Shown piece after piece: positions 55 to 11,018 of a stretch of 11,453 bases of DNA. Origin of the DNA: an uncultured Gammaproteobacteria bacterium (GTDB lineage: Bacteria > Patescibacteriota > Microgenomatia > Daviesbacterales > UBA10151). Each line of letters begins with the position of its first letter. Positions within the stretch are counted from its first letter, which is position 1. Below the pieces are notes generated by a model, which saw only the letters and a program-made list of their open reading frames with translations, was not told the origin of the DNA and did no database searches. The stretch lies in contig CAZFVS010000020.1 in assembly GCA_964522265.1 (NCBI GenBank), positions 1,965 through 13,417 on the forward strand. The letters are read 5' to 3'. A program made the translations under genes and the position numbers.

Positions 55-270
<216 letters not shown>

Positions 271-278
271 CGCTTTGC

Positions 279-360
279 GTCATCCTGAGGAGACATTAAG
301 TCGACGAAGAATCTGATCCCGAACTAGATCCTTTGACTCACCTCGCTCGCTCAGGATGAC
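279..360. repeat. Imperfect ~82-nt palindromic (REP/MITE-like) element in the atpE-atpF spacer
   Basis: Perfect 11-nt terminal inverted repeat: GTCATCCTGAG (279-289) and CTCAGGATGAC (350-360). Partially complementary inner arms are TCGACGAAGAATC (301-313) and GATCCTTTGA (327-336). No ORF is present. Confidence 0.7.
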
Positions 361-384
361 AGACTCAGCTTGTCAATTTTACTT

Positions 385-876
385 ATGGATTTTTTAAAAG
401 ATTTTGGTGTCCAGCCTATACTGCTTCTTGCCCAGGTAGTTAACTTTTTGCTACTGCTTTTGATACTAAAAAAGCTGCTTTATAAACCTATCCTGAAAAT
501 CCTGCAGCAAAGAAAAGATACAATTGCCCAAAGCTTAAAAAACGCTGAAGAAATTGAGAAAAAGCTGTTAAAGACTGAAGAAGATCGGGAGAAGGTTTTA
601 GCAAAAGCCGTGGATGAATCCAAAAAAATCATTGAGGATGCCACAAAATCCGCAACCCAAGTTATTGAAGATGCTCATATACGCGCCGGTCATGACATTG
701 AGCTGATGTTACAAAAAGGCCGGGTAGGAATCAACCAGGAGCGCGAAAAAATGCATCAGGAAATCCGGGAAGAAATTACGGACATTGTCGTAGCGTCTCT
801 CCAAAAAGTCACCGGGAAAATCATTACTAAAAAAGACCAAAAAGATTTAATTTCAAAATCGATCAGATCAATATGA
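385..876 (+). CDS. atpF: F0 ATP synthase subunit b
   Basis: Single N-terminal TM helix (ILLLAQVVNFLLLLLIL), then KKLLYKPILKILQQRKDTIAQSL and a long charged coiled-coil, as in typical b subunits. The ORF track starts at TTG 370; ATG 385 (MDFLKDF...) is the more likely start. The stop overlaps the atpH start (ATGA at 873-876). Confidence 0.85.
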   Translation: MDFLKDFGVQPILLLAQVVNFLLLLLILKKLLYKPILKILQQRKDTIAQSLKNAEEIEKKLLKTEEDREKVLAKAVDESKKIIEDATKSATQVIEDAHIRAGHDIELMLQKGRVGINQEREKMHQEIREEITDIVVASLQKVTGKIITKKDQKDLISKSIRSI

Positions 877-1271
877 AGAAAAAAAGACTTAAAAAAACCG
901 CCTCAAAAGCAGCGTCTGCATGTTTTTTAAAAGGCGGATTAGATATCCGGAAAGCTAAAACTTTTGTAATCCTTTTTAAAAAGTTTCCTGCAACAGTGTC
1001 CCTGCTGCTTTTGGGTGAATTTGTGAAAGACCTAAAAAAAGAGCAGGAAAAGTATTCTTTGGTAATTGAGTCCGCAACTGCAATTGAACCTAATCTGAAA
1101 CGCCGGGTTGTGCAGGAGATCAAAAAGAAGCGGAGCTTCATTTTTTCCGAGACCAAATTTGTAATTAACCCGCAGATACTGGGCGGATTGAAAATTAAAA
1201 CCGGTGATAATATTTTTGATATGAGTTTAGAAAACAGGATCTCGCAACTTGGTGCAACGCTAAGGGGATAA
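873..1271 (+). CDS. atpH: F1 ATP synthase subunit delta (OSCP-like), unusually short
   Basis: Operon position between atpF and atpA. The C-terminal INPQILGGLKIKTGDNIFDMSLENRISQL matches the conserved delta/OSCP C-terminal motif (..GG..v..Gd...D.S....L..L). It is only 132 aa, against about 175-180 typically. Confidence 0.75.
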   Translation: MKKKRLKKTASKAASACFLKGGLDIRKAKTFVILFKKFPATVSLLLLGEFVKDLKKEQEKYSLVIESATAIEPNLKRRVVQEIKKKRSFIFSETKFVINPQILGGLKIKTGDNIFDMSLENRISQLGATLRG

Positions 1272-1274
1272 AAT

Positions 1275-2834
1275 ATGGCAGATTTTTTAACATCACTTGA
1301 GAAAGAAGTGGCCGGATTTAAACTAAAGGCTTCAAGGGAAAATATCGGCACTGTGGTTGAAGTTGGTGATGGTATTGCCCGTGTTGAAGGGTTGTCTGAT
1401 GTTCAATATTCGGAGCTGATTGAGTTTCCCGGTAAAATTTTTGGGTTGGCGTTGAATCTTGAGCAATACAACGTCGGAGCAGTTATATTCGGAGATTTCA
1501 CAAAAGTCAAGCAGGGCGATCGGGTAAAAACTACCGGAGAAGTTTTGAAGGTTCCGGCAGGAGACGCGCTGATCGGCCGGGTTGTTGATGCTTTGGGTAA
1601 CCCGCTTGACGGTAAAGGGCCGGTACATACTAGGAACAAATATCCGGTTGAAAAAATAGCAGAGGGTGTAATTGCCCGTCAGTCAGTCGACACCCCACTC
1701 CAAACCGGCATAAAAGCAATTGATTCCATGATCCCGATCGGTCGTGGTCAAAGGGAGCTTATCATCGGTGATCGTAACACCGGCAAAACCACAATTGCCG
1801 TTGATACCATCATTAACCAGGCCCACCTCGGGGGTGAAGCCCGGGTTAAGTCTGGTGGACACCCCCGAGGTGAAAGTCGTCCTGTTATCTGTATCTATGT
1901 GGCAATCGGGCAAAAGGTTTCAAAGGTTGCCCAAATTGTGGCAAAGCTGGAAGAGCATGGCGCAATGGATCATACAATAGTTGTGGTAGCATCAGCCTCA
2001 GATCCCGCTCCTATGCAATATATCGCTCCCTACGCAGGTTGTGCTATGGGTGAATATTTTATGGATCAGGGCAAGGATGCATTGGTCATTTATGATGATC
2101 TGTCTAAACACGCCTGGGCCTACCGTCAGATATCGCTTCTTTTGCGCAGGCCCTCGGGGCGTGAGGCTTATCCGGGAGACGTTTTCTATCTTCACTCCAG
2201 ATTACTTGAGCGTGCATCAAAATTGAATAAAGATTACGGTGGAGGTTCACTGACCGCCCTTCCCATTATTGAAACCCAGGCAGGTGATGTTTCTGCCTAT
2301 ATTCCTACCAATGTTATCTCCATTACCGACGGGCAAATCTATTTGGAAGGTGACCTGTTTTATGCAGGTATCAGGCCGGCTTTGAATGTTGGTTTATCCG
2401 TTTCCCGCGTGGGAGGTGCCGCTCAAACCAAAGCGATGAAATCAGTGGCAGGTAAATTAAGACTGGATCTGGCTCAGTTTAGAGAGTTGGCAGCATTTGC
2501 CCAATTCAGCTCGGATCTAGATCCTGCTACAAAAGCCCAAATTGAGCGTGGCCGCAGGATTACTGAGGTTTTGAAGCAGCCTCCCTACTCCCCTGTTCCG
2601 GTTGAGCAGCAGGTGGCGGTGCTTTGGGTTGCGACCCAGGGTTACTTGGATGGTGTGGAGATGGAAAGAGTTAAGGAATTTGAAACGGGTTTTATTCAGC
2701 ATCTGGGACTGCGTGAGAAAAAATTACTTTCGGATATTGCAGAAAAAAAAGAATTAGACGAAAAATTGACTAAGGAATTGGAGAAAATCACGATTGAGTT
2801 TGTGAAGATGTTTCAGAAAACAAATAAGAGATAA
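1275..2834 (+). CDS. atpA: F1 ATP synthase subunit alpha
   Basis: Walker [63 protein letters not shown] and [31 protein letters not shown] are near-identical to canonical alpha subunits. AAGGGGA Shine-Dalgarno at 1262-1268. Confidence 0.97.
1824..1872. repeat. Perfect 13-bp-stem hairpin (49 nt) embedded in frame inside atpA
   Basis: CACCTCGGGGGTG (1824-1836) is the exact reverse complement of CACCCCCGAGGTG (1860-1872), with a 23-nt loop containing CCCGGG. It starts on a codon boundary and encodes [16 protein letters not shown]. This sits in the loop between ...IINQ and [10 protein letters not shown], where E. coli has only about 6 residues. Confidence 0.8.
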
Positions 2835-2838
2835 TATT

Positions 2839-3708
2839 ATGGCAAATACCAGAGAACTCAGAAGGAGGATAAAATCAATTAAAAATACCAGTCAGATTAC
2901 CAAAGCCATGCAGATGGTGGCAGCGACAAAGATGAGAAAGGCTCAAAATCAGGCTTTAGCCGGCAGGCCGTACGATTTAACTTTAACTCAGGCTCTTACA
3001 AAATTGCGGGCAAAAGCATCGGATGATATTCATCCGTTTTTTCACTCACAAGGCGGAGAGACAATCGGAGTATTGTTTATTGCAACCGATAAAAGTCTAT
3101 GTGGAAGCCTCAACACAAATCTTTTTAGAACGGTTTTGAGTTTTTCTTCCGGAAAAAAGAATTTAAGTTTTTTTACAGTAGGTAAAAAGGCGAGAAACTT
3201 TGTAGTAAAAACCGGTCATCACCTTGAAGCTGATTTTGAAAATGCAGAAGTTGTTGAGTTTCGTTTAGCAAAGCAGATTGGTAAACTTATCACCCCTTTA
3301 TTTTTAGACGGACAGCTTGCTGAAGTCTATCTTGCATATCCTGATTTTATTTCCACTCTCAAACAGGAACCGAATATTGTCAAGCTTTTGCCAATTTCAC
3401 CAGATGTATTAGACTCCCAAACCCGATTTCACCTCACAGGTGCGACAAATGGTGAATTCCTGTTTGAACCAAATCCCAATGACCTGCTGGGTTTTGTATT
3501 AAACCACCAGATTGAAATTAGGATTTACCAAGCTCTTTTGGAGACTAAAGCTTCGGAACACTCAGCCAGAATGATGGCAATGCAGAATGCGACGGATAAC
3601 GCAAACGAATTGATTGGTGACCTGCAACTTAGTTATAATCAGATCCGCCAGGCAGGTATTACGAATGAACTTTTGGAAATAACAAGTGCAGGAGCAGTAT
3701 TGGAGTAA
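2839..3708 (+). CDS. atpG: F1 ATP synthase subunit gamma
   Basis: The N-terminus ELRRRIKSIKNTSQITKAMQMVAATKMRKAQ and the C-terminus ASEHSARMMAMQNATDNANELIGDLQLSYNQIRQAGITNELLEI are the two hallmark gamma coiled-coil helices. Confidence 0.95.
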   Translation: MANTRELRRRIKSIKNTSQITKAMQMVAATKMRKAQNQALAGRPYDLTLTQALTKLRAKASDDIHPFFHSQGGETIGVLFIATDKSLCGSLNTNLFRTVLSFSSGKKNLSFFTVGKKARNFVVKTGHHLEADFENAEVVEFRLAKQIGKLITPLFLDGQLAEVYLAYPDFISTLKQEPNIVKLLPISPDVLDSQTRFHLTGATNGEFLFEPNPNDLLGFVLNHQIEIRIYQALLETKASEHSARMMAMQNATDNANELIGDLQLSYNQIRQAGITNELLEITSAGAVLE

Positions 3709-3713
3709 CAACT

Positions 3714-5029
<1,316 letters not shown>

Positions 5030-5064
5030 TGGAAAAGGGTATGAACAGTTATAGATACATGTAA

Positions 5065-5205
5065 AAAGGTAAAACTAAAAAAGAAGACATAGAAAATACT
5101 AAAAAAGAAATTAAAGCATATATGGAGGTAATATCTAAACACAATAAAAATGTGGAATTTACAAAAAGAAGTATTAATACTCCCCTACCTGTTTTGAATG
5201 CCTAA
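5065..5205 (+). pseudogene. Possible 5'-truncated hicB-like antitoxin remnant
   Basis: An open frame with no credible start reads KGKTKKEDIENTKKEIKAYMEVISKHNKNVEFTKRSINTPLPVLNA*. DIENTKKEIKAYMEV aligns position for position with LIQNVTDAILTYFEV of the intact HicB-like protein at 10391 (pattern xIxNxxxxIxxYxEV). It overlaps the hicA-like start by 8 nt, echoing the 26-nt overlap at the other locus. Confidence 0.3.
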
Positions 5206-5419
5206 ACTTACAAATATCTCAGGTAAACAAGCCGTTAAAACTTTTCTCAAATTTGGATACAAACATATTCATACTTCAGGTGATCATGCAATTTTGCAAA
5301 AAACAGGTTCCCCAACTTTATCCATCCCGCTTCACAAAGAAGTGGCACAATTTCTACTAAAAGCACAAATTAAGAAGGTAGGAATTAAAATTGAAGATTA
5401 TTTAAAAGTGCTAAGGTAA
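5198..5419 (+). CDS. hicA: HicA-family (YcfA-like) toxin, no intact partner
   Basis: The 73-aa protein matches the HicA pattern: MPKL..ISGKQAVKTFLKFGY....TSGDHAIL.....TLSIPLHKE......IKKVGIKIEDYLKVL. This corresponds to the SGKE..k.L.k.GF core, the catalytic G-S/D-H, the P.H motif and the C-terminal helix. Confidence 0.75.
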   Translation: MPKLTNISGKQAVKTFLKFGYKHIHTSGDHAILQKTGSPTLSIPLHKEVAQFLLKAQIKKVGIKIEDYLKVLR

Positions 5420-5428
5420 TGCACTTTT
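5404..5428. terminator. Weak hairpin between convergent genes
   Basis: AAAAGTGC (5404-5411) pairs with GCACTTTT (5421-5428) around a 9-nt loop. A/T runs on both sides suit a bidirectional terminator between hicA (+) and the lipoprotein gene (-). The stem is short and AT-rich. Confidence 0.3.
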
Positions 5429-5460
5429 AGTAGGTAAATTTCAAGTTTTAGTACTTAACT

Positions 5461-5772
5461 TCACTTAACTTCTGGTAAACAATCATCATTTGCGACGATT
5501 ACAAAGTACTCGTTCCTCCCAGATTCAATCTTATACTCTATACTGCACTGCTTTTCTAAAAATTGTTCACCAGCCTGCAGTGATGACTCAAGTTGCCATT
5601 TCCAATTGGTGTTACCGGCAACTCTAAAAACATGCGGTGAAACTCTTTCTATACGGTAATGATCCGTCTGTAATGTAGATGAAGTGTGTAATTTTGGTTC
5701 TCTGCGCAGTTCAGCAATTGATGGTGCACAACCACCCAGGAATAATCCCACCATAGCTATCCCCCTACCCAT
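5461..5772 (-). CDS. Small lipoprotein of unknown function
   Basis: From ATG 5772 the protein begins MGRGIAMVGLFLGGC|APS, a classic lipobox (L-G-G-C). The ORF track extends to a TTG at 5826, which would add 18 polar residues before the signal peptide. Confidence 0.6.
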   Translation of the reverse strand: MGRGIAMVGLFLGGCAPSIAELRREPKLHTSSTLQTDHYRIERVSPHVFRVAGNTNWKWQLESSLQAGEQFLEKQCSIEYKIESGRNEYFVIVANDDCLPEVK

Positions 5773-5834
5773 TTTGCTTAAAGCACTTATATTTTGTTCT
5801 CTATCTTTCAAATTAATCACCCCCAATTTTTAGA

Positions 5835-5863
5835 AGAATAGTCTTTTAGGGGAGGCATGTCAA
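5835..5863 (-). promoter_or_regulatory. Sigma70-like promoter candidate for the lipoprotein gene
   Basis: On the minus strand: TTGACA (complement of 5858-5863), a 17-nt spacer, then TATTCT (complement of 5835-5840). Confidence 0.35.
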
Positions 5864-5935
5864 CCCTTAAGTCGACAGATCATGTAAATCATACGGTTGC
5901 GGTTGAAGGTTTCTACTAACTCTTCTGTGCGAACT

Positions 5936-6529
5936 TTACGGTTTTTTCCAGTCCCCTGCGTTGAAGCGGTTCCTTCCGTTTAAGTGCCAGTCATGGGGAT
6001 TTGATTTATTAATTAATTTTGCCAACCTTTTTGCAGTTTTTGTGTAAAGCTTTTTGTAAACAGCAGTATCGCGCTGCTTGCTCCAAAATTTTTTTAACTT
6101 AAACCCCCTGGTTTCCTGTTCCTGAAGTTCCATATCTACGTCTAAATTGTCAGCGTCCTTGACGATTTTTGCCTCTATCGATTTTCTCTCCGAGTATTCG
6201 TGCCAAAGCTCCAAAAATTCCTCTTCCAACGAGGTTGTTTCGAAGACATCTCTTGCAGCTAGGTCCTCATTTCTTTCGACATATTGCCGAGACAGATAAT
6301 CCACATCAGTACTTCTGCTTTCCGGTAAATCATGCAAAAGCGCCAATTTTAAAATCTTTTCATGGTTTCCTGTTCCCTCAATGTTTGCGATCATTAAAGC
6401 AATCCAGGCTACCCTAAAGGTATGTTCAGTATTGTTTTTGAAATCGGGAGTTAAAAACCTTTTCCAAAGCCTGGGCATATGTCTCAGGCTGCCAACTTCA
6501 TATAAAAATTCCAGGTCCCTTTTCTTCAC
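5936..6529 (-). CDS. HD-domain phosphohydrolase (YfbR-like 5'-nucleotidase type)
   Basis: H...(HTFRVAWIALMIA)...LLHDLPESRSTDVD gives the H..HD..E..D metal-binding pattern of HD superfamily hydrolases. GTG start at 6529. It lies 18 nt downstream of the preceding minus-strand gene. Confidence 0.7.
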   Translation of the reverse strand: MKKRDLEFLYEVGSLRHMPRLWKRFLTPDFKNNTEHTFRVAWIALMIANIEGTGNHEKILKLALLHDLPESRSTDVDYLSRQYVERNEDLAARDVFETTSLEEEFLELWHEYSERKSIEAKIVKDADNLDVDMELQEQETRGFKLKKFWSKQRDTAVYKKLYTKTAKRLAKLINKSNPHDWHLNGRNRFNAGDWKKP

Positions 6530-6547
6530 TGCGATATTATTTTTTTA

Positions 6548-6916
6548 CTACGCCCCGATGTTCTCAAATGTGCCGTCAAGTTTTGCAAAGTAAATTTGGA
6601 TTGCAATATCCGGGTGCTGCCGGGCAATTTTTTCTGCAGCAGCCCTGAGGTCCCGGGTATGGTTTTCCGGCGACCCTTCGTCTCCATACGCACCGCAGTC
6701 TTCATGGTTAATCAGCACTGCTTTTTTAATGTTGTGAAGCCTTTCAGATATCTCGATCTGATTTAATACGTACTCTAAGTCTTTAATTCCGCCGGCTATT
6801 GACACCCGGTCATAACTTCCCGGGGCAAAATTTACCTCAAGCCATTTATTAATATAATCCTGGAACCTGAAATCAATACAGGTGACTATAACTCCTTCAC
6901 AGCTGTGTGCTGTCAT
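6548..6916 (-). CDS. Minimal beta-carbonic-anhydrase-like protein (CxDxR ... HxxC)
   Basis: TCIDFRF (C-x-D-x-R) and NHEDCGAY (H-x-x-C-G) reproduce the beta-CA zinc-ligand and Asp-Arg dyad signatures. The protein is only ~122 aa from ATG 6916 (MTAHSCEGVIVTCIDFR...). The track start at 6937 adds 7 residues. Confidence 0.5.
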   Translation of the reverse strand: MTAHSCEGVIVTCIDFRFQDYINKWLEVNFAPGSYDRVSIAGGIKDLEYVLNQIEISERLHNIKKAVLINHEDCGAYGDEGSPENHTRDLRAAAEKIARQHPDIAIQIYFAKLDGTFENIGA

Positions 6917-6918
6917 AC

Positions 6919-6947
6919 TGGCAATATTACAACACATTCAATATAAT
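6919..6947 (+). promoter_or_regulatory. Candidate promoter giving a leaderless or near-leaderless atpC transcript
   Basis: TGGCAA (6919-6924), an exactly 17-nt spacer, then consensus TATAAT (6942-6947). The ATG at 6955 is only 7 nt downstream and no Shine-Dalgarno is present. Confidence 0.4.
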
Positions 6948-6954
6948 TCATAGT

Positions 6955-7365
6955 ATGCCGATGGATCTAAAAATAGTTACTCCGGAAAAAGAGATCTATA
7001 GTGGAGAAGTTGACATGGTAACTGTGCCTTCGTCTGAAGGAGAGCTTGGTATACTTCCCCATCATGCAAATTTAATGGCCAAACTTATTCCGGGTGAGCT
7101 GCGGATAAAAAGCGGGAATAAAACTCAGGTTATGGCGGCTGGTGCAGGTTTTATACAGGTTGTAGATAATACCCTGACAATACTGACTGATTTGGCAGTA
7201 GACGAGAATGAAATTGACGAGAAAAAGGTGGAAGAAGCAAAAAAAAGAGCTGAAGCGGCACTAGAGCAAAAACTTTCAGACGAGGAGTATGCTAATACTT
7301 TAGCAGTCCTTGAAAGATCACTTGCCCAGCTCAGGGTTAAAAGAAGGCACAAAACAAGGTCTTGA
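6955..7365 (+). CDS. atpC: F1 ATP synthase subunit epsilon
   Basis: MPMDLKIVTPEKEIYSGEVDMVTVPSSEGELGILPHHANLMAKLIPGELRIK is the typical epsilon beta-sandwich N-terminus. A helical C-terminal domain follows. The track start at 6907 adds a non-homologous 16 aa, so ATG 6955 (or 6961) is preferred. Confidence 0.9.
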   Translation: MPMDLKIVTPEKEIYSGEVDMVTVPSSEGELGILPHHANLMAKLIPGELRIKSGNKTQVMAAGAGFIQVVDNTLTILTDLAVDENEIDEKKVEEAKKRAEAALEQKLSDEEYANTLAVLERSLAQLRVKRRHKTRS

Positions 7366-7398
7366 CAAAGTCCCAGATTTTGAGGACTATATTAGTTG

Positions 7399-7668
7399 AT
7401 GATTAAAAAACTGCTCCTTGCTCAATCAGGAATAGCACATCTTATCCTGCTTCTGGTTGCAGTTATTTTTATATCAGCCCTGTTATTGTTGGTTTCTTCA
7501 GGGATTATTAAAAATCCTACACAACTTATTAGAGATAAAGTCCAAAAGAATTCAGTTAAAGAGCCTGCAGTCAAGCTCCTGAGCTCCTATAGAAACCCGT
7601 TTGATAAAAACTCCCAATATGTTAATCCCTTCTCAGCATATAAAAATCCGTTCGATTCGCTGAAGTGA
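7399..7668 (+). CDS. Small N-terminally anchored membrane or secreted protein with a YxNPF-repeat tail
   Basis: MIKKLLLAQSGIAHLILLLVAVIFISALLLLV is a single hydrophobic helix. The C-terminal tail is YRNPFDKNSQYVNPFSAYKNPFDSLK (three NPF motifs). It lies 10 nt upstream of the Cys-rich gene. ATG 7399 is preferred over TTG 7396. Confidence 0.55.
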   Translation: MIKKLLLAQSGIAHLILLLVAVIFISALLLLVSSGIIKNPTQLIRDKVQKNSVKEPAVKLLSSYRNPFDKNSQYVNPFSAYKNPFDSLK

Positions 7669-7678
7669 AATATATAAA

Positions 7679-9526
7679 ATGACAGAAATTATATACGGAC
7701 AATACAAAAAAATAATTATTTTCCTCGCAGTGGTTGTTTATTTAGTGTTTGGAGCGAAGGGTGTTTTTGCTCAAACCCAATCCGCCAGTGATTCTGCAGA
7801 ATCTGCTCAAAAGTATGGGGTTACATTTCCGGTTGTAGAACTGGGTAGCTGTAAAGATATCTCATCATGCAGAAGCTTTTGTGAGGATCCCGTAAACTAT
7901 ACGACCTGTATTGATTTTGCCAAAAAGAAAGGTTTTTATAAAGAAGAGCAGGAAAATGTCAAAAAAGATGAGATTTTAGCCAAGGCAAAACAGACCTTTG
8001 GGTGTAATTCCTTTGAAAGCTGTAAAACTTATTGTGATAAGCCTGAGCATGTGGACGAATGTGATTCGTTTGCCAAGAAGAATAATCTTACTGGAGGCCA
8101 AGTCAGGTCAACAGAAGAAAGAAAGATCCTCGAAAAAGCAAAGGAGGCTTTAGGGTGTACCTCACCTCAGGACTGTATGACATTTTGCGGATTGGAGGCA
8201 AATAAACAAAAATGCTCAGAGTTTGCAAGAGAGGTCGGTTTACGCGGAGGCCAGCAGCAGGTTGGTCCGGGTGGATGCAGCTCAGAAAGCACCTGTAAGG
8301 CCTTTTGCAGCGATCCTGCAAACTACAATATTTGTTCGTCATATTCAAAATCAGTTGGGGTGGAATCCTTCAGTGGTCCGGGTGGGTGTAATAGTACAGA
8401 ATCCTGTGCAACATACTGCAAGCAAAACCCGGAAAAATGCCAATCTTTATCACAAAATCGTGAAGGCGGCAGCAACTACTCTCCTCAGGAATACTGTGCC
8501 AGAACACCCAATTGTGCATGGAATAATAATACCTGCGTATGCGGTTCTTATGGTGGGAATGTTTATACACAAGCCTGTCCCGCTAACTATTACTACGGGC
8601 CGGGAGGTGTATGCACTCCCTTAGACAAAAGCCAGGATGCCTGGCGGTGTTCGGAGAGGGGTAGGTATTGGGATGGTGGATCCTGCCGTGATTCATCGCC
8701 GGAGGGCACGACAGGCAATTATAATCCCCAGGATATGTGCAACAAAACAACTAATTGTAAATGGGCAAACAATTCATGTGCATGTGCTTTTAACGGAGAG
8801 ATTAAAACATACACCCCAGGGTTACAGGATGGTTATTATGGAAGCAGGGAAAGTCAGGAGTCAACATGCAGATCTGGTGGAGGAACCTGTGATTGGAGTT
8901 CAGGCCATTGTTACTGCAAAGGTTACCAAAGCCCAAGTAATACAACTACTGGTACGAGTCCTTACCCAGGTACATCCTCCTACCCGTCTTCGTCTGGTTA
9001 TTATGGAAGCAGGGAAAGTCAGGAGTCAACATGCAGGTCCGGAGGTGGAACGTGCGATTGGAGCCCGGGTTACTGCAGATGCGCCGGATATAATTCTTCA
9101 GGGACAACAAGCGGAGGAAGCAATGCTTCACCTTACCCGGTTGCCTCATACAGCAGCGATCCTGCAACAGGTTGTAGGCAAGCAGGAGGTACATGGAATG
9201 GATCTTACTGTCAAATGCCTACTACCTCCTCAACCTCAACTTCCACGACTACTTCTACAATGAGTCGTGACCAGCAGCAGGCGGGTTGTACATCATGCGG
9301 TGGGAGTTGCAACTGGAATGGTGATTATTGCCAGTGCCAGTGTAGTACATCGGGTTCATCAGGCGGATCTACCCCCGCTCCCACGTCTTCATCATCTACC
9401 CCTGCCCCGGATCAGTCAACTCCTGCTCCGCAGCAGTCGACTCCAGCTCCCAGTGTTCAGGGAGTATCTGTATCATCTGAGCCCAATTTTCTTCAAATAA
9501 TATGGGATTTCTTCTTTCATAGGTAA
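7679..9526 (+). CDS. Large secreted cysteine-rich modular repeat protein, unknown function
   Basis: Signal peptide KKIIIFLAVVVYLVFGAKGVFA|QT. Five modules show C-x5-C-x3-C-x8(6)-C, most followed by FAKK/FAR (aa 57-254). Five modules carry a C-x-W-x4-C-x-C core (NCAWNNNTCVC, NCKWANNSCAC, TCDWSSGHCYC, TCDWSPGYCRC, SCNWNGDYCQC). Then comes an S/T-rich linker, four STPAP repeats and a short hydrophobic end, FLQIIWDFFFHR. I count about 48 Cys in 615 aa. Confidence 0.8.
   Translation: MTEIIYGQYKKIIIFLAVVVYLVFGAKGVFAQTQSASDSAESAQKYGVTFPVVELGSCKDISSCRSFCEDPVNYTTCIDFAKKKGFYKEEQENVKKDEILAKAKQTFGCNSFESCKTYCDKPEHVDECDSFAKKNNLTGGQVRSTEERKILEKAKEALGCTSPQDCMTFCGLEANKQKCSEFAREVGLRGGQQQVGPGGCSSESTCKAFCSDPANYNICSSYSKSVGVESFSGPGGCNSTESCATYCKQNPEKCQSLSQNREGGSNYSPQEYCARTPNCAWNNNTCVCGSYGGNVYTQACPANYYYGPGGVCTPLDKSQDAWRCSERGRYWDGGSCRDSSPEGTTGNYNPQDMCNKTTNCKWANNSCACAFNGEIKTYTPGLQDGYYGSRESQESTCRSGGGTCDWSSGHCYCKGYQSPSNTTTGTSPYPGTSSYPSSSGYYGSRESQESTCRSGGGTCDWSPGYCRCAGYNSSGTTSGGSNASPYPVASYSSDPATGCRQAGGTWNGSYCQMPTTSSTSTSTTTSTMSRDQQQAGCTSCGGSCNWNGDYCQCQCSTSGSSGGSTPAPTSSSSTPAPDQSTPAPQQSTPAPSVQGVSVSSEPNFLQIIWDFFFHR
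8831..9063 (+). repeat. Intragenic direct repeat, 165-nt period, inside the Cys-rich gene
   Basis: 8831-8898 and 8996-9063 both begin GGTTATTATGGAAGCAGGGAAAGTCAGGAGTCAACATGCAG, with 41 nt identical. They then differ mainly at synonymous positions. Both encode GYYGSRESQESTCRSGGGTCDWS. Confidence 0.85.
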
Positions 9527-9538
9527 ATTCCCTGTTAT

Positions 9539-10216
9539 ATGAGTTATCAGTACTGGTTTGGTGTTCGGGTTGAGAGCTCTAGATTAAAATTCCTGCCCTA
9601 TCATGTAATGCGGATACTGGCCTGCATATATTTTGCAGTAAGAAACGCCAAAATTCAGGGAGATGGTATTCCCAAGAAAGGTCCAGTCCTGCTTGCCGCT
9701 GCCCCGCACACTTATTGGGCAGATCCGATAATTCTTGATTGGGTCATAGAAAGATTAAGCCTTCGGACAATGCGTATAATCGCAGCAGCAGACCTTCTTG
9801 AGATGATTAAACCGGTTGCGCGTAGCGTTCTGATACGAAAGTTGGTAATAAGATCTATTATCGGTGCATTTGACCCTATCCTGGTACACAGAAAGACCGG
9901 TGATATAAATTTTAGGGAGGAGCTAGATAAAGCTGTATTAGGAGGTTGTCTGGTTGGGTTATTTGTTGAAGAAAGCGATAAATATAATGATCTGTCAAAA
10001 ATAAGATCTGGTGCTGCCAGTATTGCTATGAAATACCCAAACCTGAACATTTGCCCGGTAGGCATATTTCATGCAAATCCGGCATTAGGCTTTCGGAGTT
10101 TAAAGATACGCATAGGAAAATCCTTTACAGTAAACCAGCTCAGAAGTATAAATCCAAAAATCACCAAACAGGAGATTACACAACATCTGGCAGATAATCT
10201 AGTAGAGTTAATATGA
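9539..10216 (+). CDS. PlsC-family (lysophospholipid/glycerolipid) acyltransferase-like protein
   Basis: The layout is GPVLLAAAPHTYWADPIIL (H-x4-D catalytic motif) ... LVGLFVEESD (degenerate FPEG block) ... SGAASIA ... ICPVGI, as in LPLAT/PlsC acyltransferases. It lies 12 nt downstream of the Cys-rich gene. Confidence 0.6.
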   Translation: MSYQYWFGVRVESSRLKFLPYHVMRILACIYFAVRNAKIQGDGIPKKGPVLLAAAPHTYWADPIILDWVIERLSLRTMRIIAAADLLEMIKPVARSVLIRKLVIRSIIGAFDPILVHRKTGDINFREELDKAVLGGCLVGLFVEESDKYNDLSKIRSGAASIAMKYPNLNICPVGIFHANPALGFRSLKIRIGKSFTVNQLRSINPKITKQEITQHLADNLVELI

Positions 10217-10390: not shown

Positions 10391-10747
10391 ATGGATTTAA
10401 AATCACTTCTCGATAAATATAAACTGCCAGAAACAGTACAGGTTGAAATTTCTCGAAATGAAAAGGGTAGTTTTTTTGCAAAATTAGTGGATTATCCTGG
10501 CTGTTTTACTGTTGCGGATAGTCCGCTTGAGTTAATTCAAAATGTTACTGATGCTATCCTTACCTACTTTGAGGTATCAAGAGATGATGCATTGAAATGT
10601 AATGTTTTGTACGGTCCTCCAATGCCTGATTTTTCAGAGTTTGAAAGGATGATTGTCCATAGAAGAGGACCTTCATTAACAAACCAAATAGAATTTTTAT
10701 ATTATATGGCTCCCCACCACTATGGCGGTTTTACCCGTGTTCGGTAG
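10391..10747 (+). CDS. hicB: HicB-like antitoxin (N-terminal HicB fold, atypical C-terminal region)
   Basis: GSFFAKLVDYPGCFTVADSPLELIQNVTDAILTYFEV matches the HicB/UPF0150 core (..a.vpdlPGc.sqGdT.eEa..n..eAi.l.le). It sits immediately upstream of, and overlaps, a HicA-like gene. I see no recognisable RHH or HTH in the last ~45 aa. Confidence 0.65.
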   Translation: MDLKSLLDKYKLPETVQVEISRNEKGSFFAKLVDYPGCFTVADSPLELIQNVTDAILTYFEVSRDDALKCNVLYGPPMPDFSEFERMIVHRRGPSLTNQIEFLYYMAPHHYGGFTRVR

Positions 10748-11018
10748 AGTTAAATTTGAAAGAGCCTTAAAAACCCTCGGTTTTGAAATCTTATATGATA
10801 GAGGTAAGGGTGGACATGCCTTGGCGAAACACCCTATTAGGAAACCAGACCCAAACCAACAAATAGCTAATATAACTATCCCTCATACGAAATCAAAAAA
10901 TTATGACGACCCAAGGTTAAGAAAGGAAATACTAACAGTTGTAAAAAGTTATGGTTTTTCCGAAGAAGAATTTCTCCTTGCATTAAAAGGTAAGACATTA
11001 AAGAGTAGTTCCCCCTAG
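10722..11018 (+). CDS. hicA: HicA-family toxin
   Basis: FERALKTLGFEILYDRGKGGHALAKHP ... ITIPHTK ... RLRKEILTVVKSYGFSEEEFLLALKGK fits the HicA/YcfA pattern, including the G-x-H catalytic histidine. An insert (IRKPDPNQQIAN) is present. Confidence 0.7.
   Translation: MAVLPVFGRVKFERALKTLGFEILYDRGKGGHALAKHPIRKPDPNQQIANITIPHTKSKNYDDPRLRKEILTVVKSYGFSEEEFLLALKGKTLKSSSP

Follow-up and report, generated by a model that had tools for sequence, protein, structure and literature searches.

A conserved two-gene cassette of Candidate Phyla Radiation bacteria pairs a small NPF-tail membrane protein with a predicted exported protein of four-cysteine modules

In the NPF-EH system of eukaryotic endocytosis, represented by epsin and Eps15, several Asn-Pro-Phe (NPF) motifs lie few residues apart and near acidic residues in a disordered tail, and the partner is made of small helical units. 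LPXTG/sortase-type surface proteins of Gram-positive bacteria follow the order signal peptide, domains, Pro/Ser/Thr stalk, C-terminal motif, hydrophobic stretch and basic end, and in SlaA/SlaB of Sulfolobus and Csc/WxL of Lactobacillales a large exported protein is encoded beside a small membrane-anchored partner with which it is co-conserved. In this work, we analyzed a stretch of 11,453 nucleotides (nt) from contig CAZFVS010000020.1 (hereafter, the window), in which two adjacent open reading frames (ORFs) recall these systems in part: ORF1 encodes a small single-pass membrane protein with an NPF tail, and ORF2 a large Cys-rich protein with a predicted signal peptide. Our results show, with a very high degree of confidence, that ORF1 and ORF2 constitute a conserved unit of two genes. 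The gene that follows, ORF3, encodes a PlsC-like acyltransferase and lies outside this unit, although an earlier note on this DNA had read the three genes as one.

The comparison with NPF-EH rests on the layout of both partners: three NPF motifs are present in the disordered tail of ORF1, two to four in distant partners, and multivalent short-motif binding to the helical units of ORF2 may be proposed by analogy. However, no EH domain or EF-hand was found in ORF2 by Pfam or Foldseek, the proposed site is bacterial and extracellular, and the modules would be Cys-stapled; the likeness is an analogy and not a homology. The parts of ORF2 are ordered as in LPXTG proteins, but the motif of its family is (V/I)(Q/R/H/K)G, followed by an amphipathic stretch of 12-14 residues that contains an acidic residue and then by one or two basic residues; this stretch is shorter than the at least ~17 residues of a transmembrane (TM) segment, and no NCBIfam sorting-signal model matched ORF2. 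With the SlaA/SlaB and Csc/WxL pairs there is no relation in sequence or fold, and the ORF1 anchor is far smaller and would act, if at all, by a short linear motif; S-layer proteins are, besides, typically Cys-poor. Finally, the type A modules of ORF2 resemble the twin CX3C small Tim and CHCH twin CX9C proteins in being small helical units presumably pinned by two disulfides, with CxxxC in one helix, but they display the spacing C-x5-C-x3-C-x8-C with a single CxxxC, three helices and tandem arrays of five to ~11 units, are bacterial and predicted to be exported, and showed no sequence or Foldseek match.

The pairing was established from the neighborhoods of ORF2 homologues. In the six contexts found through exact protein matches, a gene of 76-107 amino acids (aa) lies directly upstream of the Cys-rich gene without exception (6/6); downstream there is usually a class A penicillin-binding protein (PBP), and upstream usually three glycosyltransferase family 2 (GT2) genes or SecA. 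Among 43 loci from species-representative genomes, 42 retained upstream DNA and were hence testable, and a small gene with two or three NPF motifs was located directly upstream in 42/42, spanning Daviesbacteria, Gottesmanbacteria, Levyibacteriota, Roizmanbacteria, Woesebacteria and Microgenomates. In 31 of these loci the two genes overlap by 4 nt (ATGA), which points to their translational coupling. Four more distant arrays, one of them from Kuenenbacteria, are each preceded by a 73-91-aa one-TM protein with a tail like AANPFEQTSVNPFEKSPANPFEKVKVNPFE, unrelated to ORF1 outside the NP[F/L] motifs. Further, a metagenome scan with a DNA pattern for one module alone (GPGGC-x4-EC-xx-YC) provided 55 testable loci, of which 53 carry an upstream small ORF with a TM segment and, within 50 residues of its C-terminus, at least two NP[FLYMI] motifs, the final one being placed 1-2 residues from the end in 46/53; the two exceptions correspond to short two-module ORFs of 153 and 184 aa. 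The small proteins of Microgenomates type and Parcubacteria type have in common only the NPF repeats and the TM segment. Since motif, TM segment and position alone are conserved, beyond what chance would produce, the NPF tail is best regarded as the functional element of the partner. The pair occurs across the Candidate Phyla Radiation (CPR; Patescibacteria), in Microgenomates and Parcubacteria alike.

The wider surroundings of the pair are variable. After clustering the 138 genes that flank 69 loci, 112 were singletons, and the largest groups were lineage-restricted, namely GT2 (7), a cupredoxin/Cys-His-rich family (6) and PBP1 (3). The neighbors often belong to envelope or secretion functions: upstream of the pair, 12 loci carry three GT2 genes and 4 carry SecA, and downstream of it, 11 have a class A PBP and one has SecDF. 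A DUF5667 protein was observed near the Parcubacteria-type pair in both loci examined (L053, 8206-8799; L055, 9-1240), in L055 adjoining a sigma-70 family gene, which may be a coincidence.

ORF1 is 89 aa long from the ATG at 7399 (the TTG at 7396 is an alternative start, giving 90 aa), and displays a single hydrophobic segment and NPF motifs at residues 66, 76 and 83. Its 89 homologues, of 68-105 aa, are all annotated as hypothetical; the N and P of the three motifs are invariant in 89/89 sequences and the third positions of the NPF codons vary, indicating that selection acts on the peptide. Across CPR the small partners have ~70-110 aa, one TM helix and two to four Asn-Pro-Phe-type motifs in the C-terminal tail, the last of them at or near the C-terminus, and the linkers ahead of the tail are often rich in Thr/Ser/Pro/Gln, resembling the stalk of the large protein. 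The TM segment of the ORF1 family is preceded by the motif Q-(K/S)-G-(V/I)-x-H-L, in which G is found in 79/89 and H in 58/89 sequences.

With about 20 hydrophobic residues behind it, the Microgenomates consensus M-N-Q-K-G|V-I-H-L resembles a type IVa prepilin leader, having K/R in 77/89 sequences of the family beside the frequent G, and both PilD and type IV pilus systems occur widely among CPR bacteria (Meheust et al., bioRxiv 10.1101/335083). ORF1 could accordingly be thought of as a miniature type IV pilin-like protein, cut by prepilin peptidase after the conserved Gly and presenting the ORF2 product on a pilus or pseudopilus. We consider this very improbable, given that position +5 is Ala or Leu and not Glu, that ~45 disordered residues and no globular pilin domain come after the TM segment, and that the partners of Parcubacteria type have no Gly-ended leader, so that the feature is not general.

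The arrangement of ORF1 is also shared with the force-sensing arrest peptides SecM, MifM and VemP: a small upstream gene begins with a signal or TM segment, continues as a variable linker and closes with a conserved motif, here Pro-containing and 1-5 residues before the stop, with the next gene directly after; the distance of ~25-50 aa from TM to motif would fit the ribosomal exit tunnel, judging from known arrest peptides. ORF1 would then be a cis-acting leader or monitoring peptide, whose TM segment brings the translating ribosome to the membrane and whose C-terminal motif causes a stall until this segment inserts, thereby gating ORF2 translation. Several features of the pair make this quite unlikely. 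RNAalifold on 21 gene junctions returned 0 pairs and 0 kcal/mol, so that there is no conserved stem-loop over the downstream ribosome-binding site and no regulatory RNA at the junction; with the ATGA overlap of 31/42 loci, a stalled ribosome would block rather than open the ORF2 start; and the motif is repeated two to four times, as a binding motif would be. To our knowledge, the gene downstream of an arrest peptide always encodes a Sec or YidC component, whereas ORF2 has no Sec or YidC domain, is not part of the translocon and is no protein-localization factor; neither do we know of NPF as a stalling sequence.

In ORF2, the type A modules (C-x5-C-x3-C-x8-C) start at residues 58, 109, 160 and 200, and a variant C-x5-C-x3-C-x6-C starts at 237. 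The first three follow a 51-aa period, EILAKAKQTFG lies ahead of copy 2 and KILEKAKEALG ahead of copy 3, and modules 4 and 5 open with GPGGC and have no leading helix. The type B modules (C-x-W-x4-C-x-C) start at residues 279, 360, 404, 459 and 544; every module type holds four Cys, and the total is even. In an alignment of 58 homologues (40-90% identity) all 20 A-module Cys are invariant, as are the Gly-Gly and G-P-G-G hinges between A modules, and the invariance of the Cys indicates a real fold constraint rather than chance or low complexity. The number and kind of modules in the B region differ between homologues, and a 69-nt repeat with 91% identity shows that one B module was recently duplicated; as judged from sequence, duplication of modules is how the variable half of the gene evolves. 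At the other end, [VIMLT][QHMK]G is found within the last 32 residues of 154 out of 253 family tails, distant members included, although contig ends truncate some of the tails; an amphipathic stretch of 12-14 aa with a basic residue at its end usually follows. As an observation on gene number, L006/L044 (CAYOOO010000005.1) harbors two pairs within 6 kb, of 81 aa + 773 aa and 84 aa + 753 aa, and the 773-aa paralogue has long YYTPPPGSxYTTP repeats instead of B modules.

Structure prediction with AlphaFold2 and the family alignment gave a mean predicted local distance difference test score (pLDDT) of 71.6 for full-length ORF2. The A region was modeled as all-helical (block-mean pLDDT ~80-95), the B modules as a helix plus a beta hairpin (75-89), linkers and stalk had values <50, and a C-terminal helix was placed at residues 604-613. 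The long A module was modeled with three helices: a long leading helix, a CxxxC helix with the second and third Cys, and a helix with the fourth Cys. When modeled alone, the A region reached a pLDDT of 76.6 and a predicted template modeling score (pTM) of 0.33. This pTM, together with confident modules, suggests that the A modules are beads on flexible Gly-Gly hinges, with no fixed mutual arrangement; an alpha-solenoid or TPR-like rigid rod was rejected on the same pTM and because Foldseek returned only non-significant helical-repeat noise.

Family searches placed ORF2 in no described group. No family was found at E <= 1 in Pfam and NCBIfam, PADLOC and PHROGs gave no match (a defense-system or phage origin was rejected on these grounds), PDB sequence profiles gave nothing better than E 0.15, and Foldseek against PDB reached E >= 0.98 with the full model and E >= 4.5 with the A region, the hits being TPR, 14-3-3 and COPI-type noise. 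None of 58 family members matched Pfam besides two low-complexity Trypan_PARP hits, and ten distant members matched only Big_13, in one protein. The family itself is large: a profile of the A region retrieved 1,728 clusters at 50% identity (E <= 1e-3), 867 of them with E <= 1e-30, with up to 8 matched stretches and lengths of up to 1,555 aa; a protein search with a 46-aa single-module profile gave only 2 matches. The module spans ~45 aa, with the consensus GPGGCxSkeeCeAYCxxPanxeeCxxFAekxGlixpeEaexakk, and occurs as five copies in this lineage, as arrays of 6-10 in distant members, with a maximum of ~11 in other parts of the family. Kuenenbacteria, Azambacteria and the 'Parcubacteria group' are represented among the named members; the database names are 'hypothetical', apart from one cluster called 'Kazal-like domain-containing' after an accessory domain. 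Literature searches on Cys-rich proteins of Daviesbacteria/Patescibacteria/CPR, on Parcubacteria NPF motifs and on GPGGC found nothing on the family. No curated family, solved structure or paper found in these searches covers the A module, the C-terminal tail conserved in ORF2, the small NPF partner or their obligate pairing; of the novelty of the A module we are nearly certain.

These results agree with what the earlier note had described for the first two genes: a signal-peptide protein in the center with two Cys module types (48 Cys, five A and five B), exact A spacing in four copies with the 51-aa period over the first three (the fifth copy is the x6 variant), an (E)IL.KAK...G lead-in, which is seen before copies 2 and 3, a real fold rather than low complexity, and a small membrane-anchored partner with an NPF tail, to which the one hydrophobic segment and three NPF motifs correspond. 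Its statement that the module types fit no assignable family likewise held in Pfam, NCBIfam, PADLOC, PHROGs, PDB profiles and Foldseek on AlphaFold2 models.

The four-Cys modules could also be metal sites, in which case the ORF2 product would bind metal or carry out redox reactions outside the anaerobic CPR cells. The 48 Cys are strictly distributed in four-Cys units, most CPR bacteria inhabit anoxic groundwater, and in 6/69 loci the pair is adjoined by a secreted Cys/His-rich protein with a cupredoxin domain. Conversely, we know of no metal-knuckle pattern such as C-x5-C-x3-C-x8-C with a CxxxC pair inside a helix, Pfam and PDB gave no match to a metal-binding family, there are no conserved His or Asp co-ligands, and the NPF partner would be left unexplained; CPR bacteria also carry oxidative-folding enzymes (10.1101/335083). 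Although the metal-site reading is compatible with several other models, we regard it as rather improbable. The cupredoxin neighbors deserve mention in themselves, as they form a second secreted Cys/His-rich helical-repeat family, possibly metal-related, that lies on either side of the pair, in L010 (an 863-aa gene upstream of the pair), L006 (3055-4590, Pfam Cupredoxin_1), L030, L031, L041 and L065.

Our preferred reading, which we offer tentatively, is that of an exported, disulfide-stapled surface protein that the membrane partner holds or organizes by means of its NPF tail. The ORF2 product would be exported by Sec, its modules would be oxidatively folded with two disulfides each, and it would be kept at the cell surface in complex with the ORF1 product, oriented N-in/C-out with the NPF tail outside. 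By analogy with NPF-EH, this tail may act as a multivalent short linear motif docking onto the helical-module array, and the stalk and C-terminal amphipathic helix would provide a second envelope contact; the role is likely to be structural or adhesive, in the cell envelope of episymbiotic CPR bacteria. At the level of the lineage rather than of this genome, CPR are enriched in an MdbA-like thiol-disulfide oxidoreductase, often beside VKOR, and Microgenomates-enriched families are mostly non-cytoplasmic hypotheticals (Meheust et al., bioRxiv 10.1101/335083). The broader proposal, a CPR-wide extracellular recognition in which an anchored NPF-repeat tail docks on disulfide-stapled three-helix modules and tethers and organizes a major surface protein of these ultra-small cells, is put forward as a doubtful one.

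The orientation of ORF1 was weighed from the charges that flank its TM segment. If the NPF tail were cytoplasmic (N-out/C-in), ORF1 would either connect the exported protein with some conserved partner in the cytoplasm or influence export itself, and the two products would touch through the N-terminal motif and TM helix of ORF1 and the C-terminal amphipathic helix of ORF2. The C-flank of the TM segment is indeed more net positive than the N-flank in 73/89 Microgenomates sequences and, among members with short N-terminal tails, richer in K/R in 89/110; the motif QKG(V/I)xHL and the ORF2 C-terminal helix are both conserved, and SecA or SecDF adjoins the pair in 5 loci. However, when the short N-terminal tail is taken into account the K/R densities on both sides of the TM segment are about equal, the C-flank excess being partly an effect of window length; simple positive-inside counting would point to a cytoplasmic tail, but very short N-terminal tails bias the count. 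Where the N-terminal tail has at least 15 aa, the N side has equal or more K/R in 25/32 members, and one small protein shows a 114-aa N-terminal extension and no signal peptide (its start codon is unverified); these sequences favor N-in/C-out. In addition, the Thr/Ser/Pro/Gln-rich linkers resemble an extracellular stalk, and a cytoplasmic NPF-binding domain is neither known nor found here. Taken together, a cytoplasmic tail seems unlikely to us.

Other observations, along with these charge counts and the four-Cys units that could be metal sites, weigh against a surface protein held by the NPF tail. The number of NP-x motifs (2-4) shows no correlation with the number of modules (1-9; Spearman -0.007, n=36), so that one NPF motif per module is unlikely; no ORF1-ORF2 fusion was found among ~250 family proteins; and the 138 flanking genes vary, with no third conserved partner among them, so that the context gives little functional guidance.

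As for the acyltransferase, residues 39-176 of ORF3 match the Pfam family Acyltransferase (PF01553) with 32.1 bits, above the cut-off of 23 (E 1.2e-7), and the catalytic HX4D motif is present as HTYWAD at aa 57-62, as in PlsC/LPLAT acyltransferases, but ORF3 scores far below the cut-off of the 1-acylglycerol-3-phosphate acyltransferase model (NCBIfam AGP_acyltrn, TIGR00530: 17.6 bits against 102.95). The earlier note was correct in calling gene 3 PlsC-like and in describing three same-strand ORFs with 10- and 12-nt gaps, as the ORF coordinates confirm. A three-gene apparatus, with the acyltransferase working with the other two proteins, for instance in envelope modification, would accord with this packing: ORF1-ORF3 are on one strand with gaps of 10 nt (ORF1/ORF2) and 12 nt (ORF2/ORF3), no terminator-like site lies between atpC, ORF1, ORF2 and ORF3, and the three genes are probably co-transcribed in this window. 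Nevertheless, atpC is equally close upstream (30 nt from its end to ORF1, same strand), and genes are generally packed tightly in such small genomes. No ORF3 homologue was found by tblastn within 5 kb of the pair in the 43 species-representative loci (0/43), an acyltransferase was never present in the six exact-match contexts, and the 89%-identical relative (L009) has an unrelated 208-aa protein downstream, in the place of ORF3. The co-occurrence check that the note had proposed is thus answered in favor of genes 1 and 2 (42/42, 4/4 and 53/55) and against gene 3 (0/43); the three-gene unit was rejected, and envelope modification via the acyltransferase lost its basis with it. An apparatus of three genes is, in our judgment, extremely unlikely: ORF3 is an unrelated housekeeping neighbor, adjacent by chance, and is to be left out of further work on the system.

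The features of the window are listed in Table 1.

Table 1. Coordinates of the two-gene cassette, its parts and the neighboring genes in the window.
Feature	Position	Strand	Remark
atpE, F, H, A, G, D (F-type ATP synthase operon)	67-5029		
atpC	~6955-7365	+	same strand as ORF1-ORF3
ORF1, small single-pass membrane protein with NPF tail	7396/7399-7668	+	homologue directly upstream of Cys-module gene in 42/42 loci
ORF1 hydrophobic TM segment, ~aa 12-34	7432-7500	+	from sequence
ORF1 C-terminal tail YRNPFDKNSQYVNPFSAYKNPFDSLK	7588-7665	+	NPF motifs 7594-7602, 7624-7632, 7645-7653
ORF2, predicted secreted modular protein, 615 aa, 48 Cys	7679-9526	+	
Putative Sec-type signal peptide, aa 1-31, ...GVFA|QTQ	7679-7771	+	read from sequence; cleavage site inferred; same layout in homologues
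Conserved head of five four-Cys A modules, aa 45-259	7811-8455	+	20 invariant Cys
A-module Cys cores	7850-7909, 8003-8062, 8156-8215, 8276-8335, 8387-8440	+	
Variable region, aa 260-555, five B modules and Cys-every-11 stretch	8456-9343	+	
B modules, C-x-W-x4-C-x-C	8513-8542, 8756-8785, 8888-8917, 9053-9082, 9308-9337	+	
Stretch with 11-residue Cys spacing	8540-8650	+	within variable region
Duplicated B module, direct repeat of 69 nt	8830-8898 and 8995-9063	+	91% identical, 165 nt apart
Ser/Thr/Pro-rich stalk, aa 556-591	9344-9451	+	
21-nt tandem repeat, 2.1 copies	9401-9444	+	encodes STPAPQQ stalk
Conserved C-terminal tail SVQGVSVSSEPNFLQIIWDFFFHR	9452-9523	+	VQG motif, short amphipathic helix, basic end
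ORF3, PlsC-like acyltransferase, 225 aa	9539-10216	+	adjacent gene, outside unit

The best matches of the window proteins are from Candidatus Daviesbacteria and other Microgenomates (CPR bacteria, Patescibacteria). In many records titled 'uncultured Gammaproteobacteria' (Third Party Annotation, TPA; many of them 'binchicken' isolates) we observed the Microgenomates-type cassette together with Microgenomates-like neighbors, namely in L012, L015, L016, L018-L020, L024, L028, L031, L033, L036, L038-L040, L042, L044 and L052, and these titles look like defaults or mislabels.

Further observations concern the ATP synthase genes upstream of the cassette. Within 3767-5500, atpD (ATP synthase beta) has just 420 aa and stops after ...EAFTGR; in relatives it runs ~40 residues further (KGKYVPIKETIK.FKEILEGKHD...), and this tail is absent from all three frames past 5029. 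The shortening could reflect an assembly problem or an insertion that truncated the 3' end. The 500 nt that follow have 31% GC, with a lone HicA-toxin gene at 5198-5419. Between atpD and atpC, three genes on the - strand (5461-6937) code for a hypothetical protein of 121 aa, a phosphohydrolase (HD_3) and a putative carbonic anhydrase (Pro_CA_2). The Pro_CA_2 gene, which runs antisense immediately before atpC, is also found in relatives L003, L005, L022 and L039, which indicates that the split atp operon is a lineage feature. The mechanical ORF of atpC begins at a GTG at 6907, a start that would create a 31-nt overlap with the divergent Pro_CA_2 gene; MPMDLKIV (~6955-6961), with which the conserved epsilon sequence opens, is the likelier start. 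Downstream of ORF3, the gene of a HicB-like antitoxin at 10391-10747 overlaps by 26 nt that of a HicA-like toxin at 10722-11018, both with sub-threshold Pfam matches (E 1.9e-4 and 1.6e-3); the latter is the second HicA-type gene in the 11-kb window.

CPR bacteria account for much of the diversity of bacteria, and for most envelope proteins specific to their lineages no function is known. With the present analysis, an anonymous hypothetical protein becomes a defined and widespread two-gene cassette, with a new, presumably Cys-stapled helical module and a synthesizable NPF peptide as a candidate interaction handle; peptide-domain binding, disulfide mapping and the structure of the 45-residue module are all approachable without culturing the organisms. 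If the proposed recognition is true, it would constitute a prokaryotic counterpart of eukaryotic short-linear-motif/domain networks built on a new fold, and the conserved head, variable mini-modules and stalk of ORF2 could serve envelope architecture or host attachment. Should the pair build or anchor a surface layer or an adhesin, it would bear on the envelope integrity of these episymbionts or on their attachment to the host.

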